A stretch of DNA of 64,000 nucleotides from Pirellulales bacterium (lineage in GTDB: Bacteria > Planctomycetota > Planctomycetia > Pirellulales > UBA1268), in contig JADHNY010000002.1 in NCBI GenBank assembly GCA_016779265.1, positions 13,616-77,615 on the forward strand. The letters are read 5' to 3'. The translations under genes and the position numbers were made by a program. This document shows, piece after piece, positions 62,079-62,969 of the stretch; position 1 is the first letter of the stretch, and every line of letters starts with the position of its first letter. The notes below the pieces were generated by a model. It was not told the origin of the DNA. It was given only the letters and a program-made list of their open reading frames with translations, and ran no database searches.

Positions 62079-62969
62079 CTAGGCGTCCTGGGACCCCGGA
62101 TTCGTTTCACACCCCAGCGTGGTCAGGATGGCATCCACGTCGGCGGCGACTGCAGGATCGCGTTGGATCCGTTCCTGAGTCACCCGAATCGCGTGCATGA
62201 CTGTTGTGTGATCGCGGCCACTGAAACGACGCCCGATCGCCGCCAGGCTCTCACCACAGAACTGGCGGGCGAGGTACATCGCGATGCCGCGAGCCAACGC
62301 GACCGTGCGACGGCGAGAGCTCCCAATGAGGTCGTCGTTGGTGAGCCCGAAGTGTCGGGCACTGGCTGAGAGAATGCGGCGAACGGAGGGCGCGGGCCTC
62401 CCCATGGCCGGCCCCACGGTTGTCGCGGTCGGCTCCGTGCTCCGCACCGTCACGACGAGCCCTTCACCTAGTCGAGACGTGATCGCCTCTGGCAGTTGTG
62501 AACGCTTGCCATGCTCCTGGGCGAGACTGCAGACCATGCGGCTGCCAGTTTCGAGGACACGATCAAGGAGATGCGGCAGGGAAGCGAGGTGATGGTCTTC
62601 CACGAGCTGGGCAATCCCATCGATGACCACGAGGTCGGCAGAGGTCCAGCGTTGGTGAACACTGTCGAGGCTCTCGCCCGCTGCCGCATCGAGATCGCGG
62701 CAGAGTCGTTTGGCATCAATAAACAGGAGCCGCCGAGAACCACGGGCTGTGTCGCGGTGGAGGCCTTTCCAGTGATGTCGGATCTCCTGGAGCACGGCCG
62801 TCGTCGCAGCGGGGGAGCCAACCAGTACCAGCGGGCTGTAGTAACACGGCTCATCAGCGAGTAGCGAAGTAATCCCCACGCCGAGCAGATCGAGTTCGCT
62901 GCGGACAGCGTGGCGATGATCGCGACGCTGCTGCGGATCGGCGTCACCAGGGCCGCTGGAAGTCGGCAT
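62079..62969 (-). CDS. dnaA: DnaA-like protein: degenerate AAA+ core plus DnaA domain IV, no domains I-II
   Basis: 296 aa. The C-terminus ([21 protein letters not shown]...[13 protein letters not shown]) matches the DnaA DNA-binding domain. The N-terminal part is collinear with the AAA+ core, but the P-loop reads GSPAATTA and Walker B reads VVIDGI. Syntenic with dnaN. Confidence 0.7.
   Translation of the reverse strand: [296 protein letters not shown]

Follow-up and report, generated by a model that had tools for sequence, protein, structure and literature searches.

To our knowledge, ATP-bound DnaA is regarded as the almost universal signal that triggers and times chromosome replication in bacteria, the exceptions so far being endosymbionts and some cyanobacteria, in which dnaA is lost or bypassed entirely. 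The present analysis concerns a 64,000-nucleotide stretch of a Pirellulales bacterium (NCBI GenBank assembly GCA_016779265.1, contig JADHNY010000002.1, positions 13,616 to 77,615; referred to as the window) and, within it, a gene upstream of dnaN that encodes a reduced DnaA of 296 amino acids (aa). Unlike in those exceptions, the gene stays at the origin with its DNA-reading domain and AAA+-shaped core under selection, while the parts that bind, sense and hydrolyze ATP are lost. The protein is read here, with a probability of about 0.55, as the vertically inherited DnaA of an uncultured marine Pirellulales-like planctomycete, built from a box-reading domain IV and a nucleotide-free AAA+-derived scaffold, and as an origin factor that works without nucleotide and still acts as the initiator or as its core.

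A preliminary description of the locus, made from the letters alone, had recognized a minimal 296-aa DnaA with a domain IV match at the C-terminus, a retained segment resembling RLxSRFxxGL, VVIDGIAQL where DnaA has LLIDDIQF, no GK[ST] anywhere in the protein and no sensor-II/lid subdomain. From the 75 bp left upstream, it had also argued against a frameshifted full-length gene, and it had proposed a comparison with the Pfam models and a survey of orthologues, both of which were carried out. All of these observations agree with the results given below. The open reading frame (ORF) is already maximal, so an N-terminal extension is impossible, and the gap to the upstream Aminotran_5 gene is indeed 75 bp (62970-63044).

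In the Pfam comparison, Bac_DnaA_C (PF08299) matched aa 197-262 strongly (4.6e-24), Bac_DnaA (AAA, PF00308) was borderline over aa 44-173 with 23.3 bits against a cut-off of 23.0, and domain I (PF11638), which makes contacts with the helicase and regulators, gave no match, with about 24 residues preceding the core. The PF00308 score falls in a graded series, from 99.6 bits for the relative P0078 through 41.0 for P0019 and 33.6 for P0017 to the 23.3 of the reduced protein, and P0033 had none. The score for the TIGR00362 equivalog was 103.8 bits, below the cut-off of 343.9. Using phmmer against PDB DnaA entries, domain IV was significant by sequence (2hcb and 1l8q, 6.5e-12), while the AAA part was collinear and not significant. 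The protein is identical to MBL6711902.1, deposited as 'hypothetical protein ISQ07_00785 [Pirellulales bacterium]' from a Pirellulales metagenome-assembled genome (MAG), and the NCBI labels for it are 'hypothetical protein' or 'helix-turn-helix domain-containing protein'.

The motifs were compared in an alignment with E. coli DnaA and 24 relatives, planctomycete DnaAs included. At the Walker A position, the reduced protein reads GSPAATTA-V, with the lysine absent and one residue deleted. It has three lysines in total (K68, K87 and K155), none of them near the loop, and its sole 'GK' is GKR. The Walker B strand, LVVIDGI, retains the first Asp and has Gly at the second acidic position. Sensor I has changed from TSD in canonical DnaA to CSLAQ, and the basic residues of the B-motif, which binds single-stranded DNA (ssDNA), are gone. 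Box VII is kept and its R166 aligns with the E. coli arginine finger R285, being invariant in 58/58 and 42/42 aligned sequences. The distance from box VII to domain IV is 20 aa compared with 73-80 aa in lid-bearing relatives, and this linker is fast-evolving. In domain IV, the base-contacting residues are conserved: R219, R227, D253, H254, T255 and H259 correspond to R399, R407, D433, H434, T435 and H439 of E. coli.

The reduced DnaA almost certainly cannot bind ATP, and the ATP switch that normally sets the time of replication in bacteria may therefore be out of use in this planctomycete. Without ATP to sense, R166 may stabilize a nucleotide-free oligomer or act on an ATP-binding partner. That the acidic residues present in many of the pseudo-P-loops could serve as a phosphate mimic for a neighbouring arginine finger is not claimed, since the protein's own loop holds no acidic residue.

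The AlphaFold2 model, built from a 58-sequence alignment with a predicted local distance difference test score (pLDDT) of 87.3, shows a five-stranded alpha/beta core followed by a disordered linker of 18-20 aa with low pLDDT and then domain IV, and no helical bundle between strand 5 and domain IV. The top Foldseek matches in the PDB were full-length or domain III-IV DnaA structures (8btg, 1l8q, 2hcb and 3r8f; E 1e-12 to 1e-9), followed by DnaA domain III alone (8bv3, 2z4r) and domain IV (3pvp), and later by Hda, clamp-loader (RFC) subunits, IstB and DnaC. Domain IV superposed on 3pvp and 1j1v with a root-mean-square deviation of about 1.0 A.

The gene is real and recurs. At least 23 contigs from separate assemblies (JGI, ENA, Logan and NCBI) code for exactly this protein, those of the MAGs GCA_017855415.1 and GCA_046766455.1 among them, and differences between strain variants are confined to third codon positions. 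The ratio of non-synonymous to synonymous substitution rates (dN/dS) was calculated from two diverged orthologues (72% and 61% identity), with dS near saturation and values therefore rough. The AAA-like core gave about 0.09-0.2 and domain IV 0.08-0.14, compared with 0.3-1 in the linker and the N-terminal tail. These low ratios indicate that the nucleotide-free core is a maintained domain and not debris. A pseudogene was rejected on the same grounds, dN/dS far below 1 together with the third-position-only variants. That the short form arose from a full-length dnaA through misassembly, a frameshift or faulty gene calling is practically excluded by the maximal ORF with 75 bp to the upstream gene, by the identical protein in at least 23 independent assemblies, and by the same architecture in dozens of diverged relatives. 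Nothing in favour of such an artefact was found, and it was considered solely on account of the MAG origin of the DNA.

Constraint on the protein is still present and much lowered. Between the window and sister lineage L013, DnaN is 96.8% identical and DnaA 72%; for sister lineage L015, the values are 92.7% and 61%. In the canonical pair L022 and L100, DnaN identity is 81% and DnaA identity 78%.

A profile of 42 lid-less sequences was searched against 1.84 billion cluster representatives, and the truncation was found to recur. There were 57 lid-less clusters at 50% identity, with lengths of about 230-360 aa, each matching in one unbroken stretch, whereas lid-bearing planctomycete DnaAs matched the profile in two. 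GxxGxGKS is kept in only about 4 of the 57, GNS is found in one, and about 50 have no P-loop. The remaining pseudo-P-loops are hypervariable (for example VAPSPAAAS, VDPAGATAK, VSSDGTAAS and VTGTPAFPAL). In a rough neighbour-joining tree, all reduced forms were nested inside the canonical planctomycete DnaAs; indicative only, this tree implies at least two or three independent P-loop losses. No isolate or complete genome was found among the cluster members, all of which come from metagenomes or MAGs. In the literature searched on planctomycete, P-loop-less, lid-less or pseudo-ATPase DnaA, no description of such orthologues was found, for planctomycetes or other bacteria. The reduced DnaA belongs to a large, uncultured and previously unnoticed family, and the protein itself is missed by curated family models.

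The gene order cysteine desulfurase, dnaA, spacer, dnaN, dciA and gyrB is common to five of the five lid-bearing relatives checked, and the cysteine desulfurase upstream of dnaA is a conserved feature of this group. At the dnaA locus, P0078, L022, P0051 and P0045 have canonical forms of 329-360 aa bearing both P-loop and lid. At the same locus, P0017 (366 aa) is partly decayed, keeping the lid but reading GCGKS and, in Walker B, VEGLD. P0025 and P0028 are lid-less, keep GxxGxGKS and adjoin dnaN, with the dnaA-aminotransferase pair inverted, and P0033 is a second lid-less and P-loop-less form in the same locus order. Since it shares its locus with the canonical forms, the reduced DnaA is a positional orthologue and not a stray paralogue. 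The absence of domains I-II, pointed out in the preliminary description, was confirmed but is not distinctive, because ATPase-competent planctomycete DnaAs of 329-360 aa also lack them; it is therefore a trait of the wider planctomycete group.

Canonical planctomycete DnaAs already depart from E. coli at sensor II. Arg334, which in E. coli matters for ATP hydrolysis, is replaced by Pro (VPELLGAL compared with VRELEGAL) in P0036, P0038, P0042, P0045, P0051 and P0078 (alignment columns ~380-400) and at loci L007, L100 and L101. Since these proteins have Pro at this site and no domains I-II, control of ATP hydrolysis may already be atypical across the wider group. In the lid-less forms that bear a P-loop, the second Walker B acid is already lost. 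Decay thus proceeded stepwise: the wider group first lost domains I-II and the sensor-II arginine, the second Walker B acid and the lid followed, and the P-loop disappeared last, several times independently.

Some of these loci show further rearrangements. In the inverted layout (L009, which is P0025; L020; and the P0028 contig of GCA_041443065.1), dnaN is on one strand and dnaA, then the aminotransferase, on the other, which looks like an origin-proximal inversion. An extra ORF lies between dnaN and dnaA in P0028 (213 aa) and in P0033 (105 aa). L020 (CAYSPN010000792.1, 2.9 kb, titled 'Candidatus Kuenenia sp.') encodes a lid-less DnaA with 37% identity and a DnaN fragment 80% identical to that of the window; this contig is probably mis-binned or mislabelled and from the same Pirellulales-like group.

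The spacer between dnaA and dnaN has 51% G+C compared with 63% for the window. GC skew of the plus strand is negative across 62 kb and flat at 62-64 kb. On L001, a longer contig of the same organism, it is about -0.04 over the 8 kb with dnaA and the upstream genes and about +0.09 from the spacer onward. Since the first two genes upstream are oriented like those downstream, the flip is not a simple gene-strand effect. The sign change therefore marks the spacer as the inferred oriC.

Within the spacer, elements follow the dnaA stop codon in the same order in the three reduced lineages compared, namely a DnaA box, the TGTTGGTT motif, a degenerate box, an A/T-rich tract, and the dnaN promoter with its leader. 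The perfect box TTTTCCACA is kept in all three; it is also found in the spacer of canonical L007, L022 and L017 and beside dnaA in L020. There are four perfect TTWTNCACA matches in the 64-kb window. At the position of the degenerate box, GTTTCCCAC in the window, the two sister lineages carry TTTTCCACC or TTTTCCACG. The A/T tract holds the most A/T-rich 50-mer of the 64 kb (76% A+T). Neither the window nor the flanking DNA of related loci contained a multi-box cluster (TTWTNCACA with up to one mismatch). Since canonical relatives equally have no cluster, origins with few boxes are apparently the rule in the group. When the spacer was searched de novo for k-mers and repeats, only the box, TGTTGGTT and A-rich words came up, and Rfam gave nothing credible as structured RNA there, with one chance-level miRNA match. 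The positions of these features are collected in Table 1.

Table 1. Positions in the window of the reduced dnaA, the parts of its product, the elements of the adjacent spacer and the neighbouring genes.
Feature	Position	Strand	Basis or remark
Reduced dnaA orthologue, 296 aa	62079..62969	-	ORF, Pfam, identity to MBL6711902.1
AAA+-derived alpha/beta core, aa 25-176; five strands, initiator-type helical insert kept	62442..62897	-	Alignment, AlphaFold2, Foldseek
Pseudo-P-loop GSPAATTAV, aa 51-59; replaces Walker A GxxGxGK[ST]	62793..62819	-	Alignment
Walker B remnant LVVIDGI, aa 113-119	62613..62633	-	Alignment
Box VII (SRLxxGL), aa 163-171; R166 = E. coli arginine finger R285	62457..62483	-	Alignment
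Linker of 18-20 aa in place of the lid/sensor-II subdomain	62388..62441	-	Alignment, model, rates
DnaA domain IV, aa 195-285	62115..62387	-	Pfam, phmmer, alignment, Foldseek
dnaA-dnaN spacer, ~607 bp, inferred oriC	61472..62078		GC skew sign change, composition
Perfect DnaA box TTTTCCACA	62070..62078	-	Directly after the dnaA stop codon
TGTTGGTT motif	62058..62065	-	4 nt past the box; invariant in the closest (P-loop-less) clade
Degenerate second DnaA box GTTTCCCAC	61797..61805	-	~270 nt farther on; position conserved
A/T-rich tract, candidate unwinding element	61595..61645	-	Conserved across three lineages
Promoter-like site GTGACG-17-TATATT	63020..63048	-	Inside and just upstream of the 75-bp gap before dnaA
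Class-V aminotransferase / cysteine desulfurase (376 aa on complete contigs)	63045..64000	-	Continues past the window end
dnaN, 371 aa from the conserved MKVRV start	60356..61471	-	Start conserved across lineages
dciA (PF05258)	59986..60366	-	Pfam
gyrB	57415..59973	-	Gene order, matching contigs

The last ~90 nt before dnaN (61472-61560, minus strand) are near-invariant among lineages whose DnaA is only 61-72% identical. This segment reads CCAGTGCCCAAC ... GGGTACATTGAAGGGCTCAAAACACCGGAAAAAGCCC ... AAGGAATCTATG and has no Rfam match; its hairpin-like GGCTC...GCC suggests a promoter plus a structured dnaN leader. The mechanical dnaN ORF (60356-61729, minus strand) would encode 457 aa. The 86-aa extension above the MKVRV start (61471) is not conserved and spans the A/T tract, and gene callers differ, giving 371, 397 or 450 aa.

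Within 15 kb of the origin, the window also contains pgk (56113-57330, minus strand), a [NiFe]-hydrogenase-type cluster (51684-56020, minus strand; NiFeSe_Hases, Oxidored_q6, NAD_binding_1 and Fer4 on matching contigs) and a class II, B12-dependent ribonucleotide reductase (47648-50752, plus strand). Farther away, an ATP-dependent DNA ligase (556 aa), an Lhr-type helicase (836 aa, WH_Lhr and DEAD_assoc) and a metallophosphoesterase (235 aa) form an operon-like DNA-repair module (9401-14261, minus strand). A Ser/Thr protein kinase of 916 aa (22569-25319, plus strand) and an alpha-L-rhamnosidase of 1577 aa (34504-39237, plus strand) next to an L-rhamnose isomerase (31525-32799) were also found. 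These kinase and rhamnose genes are typical planctomycete signalling and polysaccharide-degradation genes and confirm an ordinary chromosomal context.

A mechanism without an ATP/ADP cycle can be proposed for such a protein. The reduced DnaA would bind the TTTTCCACA box and self-associate through the retained AAA+ interface (box VII SRLxxGL with its invariant arginine, and the initiator-specific helical insert), and in this form it would mark and organize the origin. Opening of the A/T tract would owe less to an ATP-DnaA filament on ssDNA than to supercoiling, nucleoid proteins or transcription from the neighbouring dnaN promoter, and DciA would then take charge of DnaB. The timing of initiation would have to follow protein abundance (through autoregulation, titration or proteolysis) and not nucleotide state.

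DciA, encoded between dnaN and gyrB, has a fold that reportedly resembles DnaA domain I, which is of interest since DnaA here has no domain I. In the window, it shows a weak match (E 0.058) to PF23007, 'DnaA_N-like alpha-beta domain'. As for the route to the helicase, E. coli DnaA domains III-IV unwind oriC in vitro, yet fail to support replication (PMC5448010). Therefore, with domain I lost, planctomycetes would already use a different one. The suggestion in the preliminary description that initiation might rely on the adjacent DciA was not supported. DciA is an ancestral neighbour at the dnaA locus in many phyla, and DciA-depleted cells stall after open-complex formation (PMC5109545). It is therefore a helicase operator and no substitute for the melting ATPase.

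The same description had left two possibilities: either initiation dispenses with a nucleotide switch, or the protein is a regulator derived from DnaA and the initiator lies elsewhere. This was the right pair of hypotheses, and orthology at a skew-defined origin favours the first without proving it. Several points count against the protein being the initiator or its core. It is hard to see what an invariant arginine finger would do in a homo-oligomer without bound ATP, and one perfect and one degenerate box in the spacer are far fewer than in typical origins. The protein also evolves much faster than DnaN, which suits a demoted as well as a simplified role. In addition, a second initiator elsewhere in the genome is possible, the lineage being known from MAG and metagenome sequence.

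The strongest competitor, unlikely overall but with a real share of the probability, is that the reduced DnaA is an origin-bound accessory or transcription factor, for example regulating dnaA or dnaN or marking the origin, while a second canonical DnaA or an unrelated initiator opens the duplex. Selection on the ATPase would then have been relaxed because the other initiator took over. This would account for evolution that is accelerated relative to DnaN, a hypervariable and repeatedly lost pseudo-P-loop, missing B-motif basic residues and only one or two DnaA boxes, and the invariant arginine finger would suit action on an ATP-bound partner. Hda, for instance, acts on ATP-bound DnaA via its arginine finger. 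However, spacer boxes are equally few in the canonical relatives, and the origin is placed beside the reduced dnaA itself by the change of skew, by the conserved box and by the A/T tract. Moreover, all five lid-bearing DnaAs whose context was checked share the dnaN locus and no class of orphan canonical paralogues was seen, which, within this sample only, argues against a widespread one. In the 64-kb window, the reduced dnaA was the only gene recovered by tblastn with E. coli and planctomycete DnaAs as queries. A scan of genome contigs with the pattern RDHTTV[LM]H[AGS], which has no power on a second dnaA, gave among the matches listed mostly Alphaproteobacteria and Actinomycetota and no close relative.

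That the gene is a remnant in decay, due to disappear from a lineage whose replication is now DnaA/oriC-independent, is quite improbable. The stepwise motif loss and the fast evolution are what such a remnant would show, and free-living cyanobacteria provide a precedent for DnaA-independent replication (PMC7198777). On the other hand, both domains show dN/dS far below 1, the 57 clusters (50% identity) have intact ORFs, at least 23 contigs carry an identical protein, and the domain IV and box VII residues are invariant. In addition, skew here runs regularly over 62 kb and changes sign at the locus, while in DnaA-independent cyanobacteria it is mostly irregular (PMC7198777), which argues for a fixed origin.

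That nucleotide is still bound, through a non-canonical pocket or in another register, is very improbable. In its favour, the model shows the AAA+ core fold at high confidence and the first Walker B Asp is kept, but there is no GK[ST] and none of the three lysines lies near the loop, which is one residue shorter and unconstrained in sequence among relatives. Half of the pocket is missing as well, since the lid that forms it and bears sensor II has been deleted.

Should the reduced DnaA still be the initiator, origin recognition and assembly would be uncoupled from the nucleotide switch, and nature would have supplied a minimal system in which the true need for the ATPase can be studied. Otherwise, an initiator must await discovery in these abundant marine bacteria. 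A broader generalization is offered tentatively, at somewhat under even odds: a radiation of free-living marine planctomycetes would initiate at a fixed origin with a nucleotide-free DnaA, the ATP/ADP switch having been discarded repeatedly and replaced by abundance control or a partner, with AAA+ as an assembly scaffold only. There is also a practical side. TIGR00362, which we take to be one of the GTDB bac120 markers, fails on this protein, and marker-based analyses may miss it. Since that model fails and the NCBI label is 'hypothetical', dnaA-based origin calling in these MAGs will misbehave.

Compared with canonical DnaA (E. coli, B. subtilis and A. aeolicus), the reduced DnaA shares the box-contacting residues of domain IV, the initiator-clade AAA+ fold with its insert, the box VII arginine, the position upstream of dnaN at the skew switch and a nearby TTTTCCACA box. 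In contrast, it has no P-loop, second Walker B acid, lid, sensor II, B-motif basic residues or domains I-II, and its sensor I is changed. The planctomycete DnaAs P0078, P0045, P0051 and L022 share its locus and neighbours, the lack of domains I-II and one DnaA box in the spacer, but they have GxGKS/T, a Walker B DD/ED and a lid of 73-80 aa.

Among other proteins with related folds, Hda resembles the reduced DnaA in having a DnaA-type AAA+ core in which the arginine finger outweighs its own catalysis, and it is a Foldseek neighbour (3bos, 5x06). However, Hda has a nucleotide site, a lid and an N-terminal clamp-binding motif, and no domain IV. The TIGR03420 (Hda) score of 19.2 bits against a cut-off of 194.8, the presence of domain IV and the absence of the lid rule out this identity. 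The likeness to DnaC and IstB is structural only (5bq5, 3ec2), and a helicase-loader identity was rejected given 17.7 bits for NF038214 against a cut-off of 200 and no Walker A. The NF004687 and NF004686 ('PRK06030') proteins have the domain IV helix-turn-helix in common with it, but they are about 140-150 aa long with no AAA-derived domain, while the reduced DnaA keeps a conserved 150-aa core and the dnaA locus; its scores are 26.8 and 20.3 bits for cut-offs of 181 and 148.

Orc2 and Orc3 are catalytically inactive AAA+ subunits of the eukaryotic origin recognition complex (ORC), held in a hetero-oligomer with ATP-binding subunits. They resemble the reduced DnaA in that an initiator AAA+ fold is kept as a structural, DNA-organizing module without ATP turnover. 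Unlike the reduced DnaA as read here, they work beside subunits that bind ATP, and ORC is only a distant Foldseek match (7jgr). Finally, in cyanobacteria with DnaA-independent replication, dnaA is lost, or intact but dispensable (PMC7198777). The likeness lies in a free-living lineage in which the DnaA-ATP/oriC mechanism has apparently been relaxed several times independently. Unlike in those cyanobacteria, the planctomycete dnaA is kept, reshaped and under selection, in a chromosome whose skew is regular and flips at the locus.

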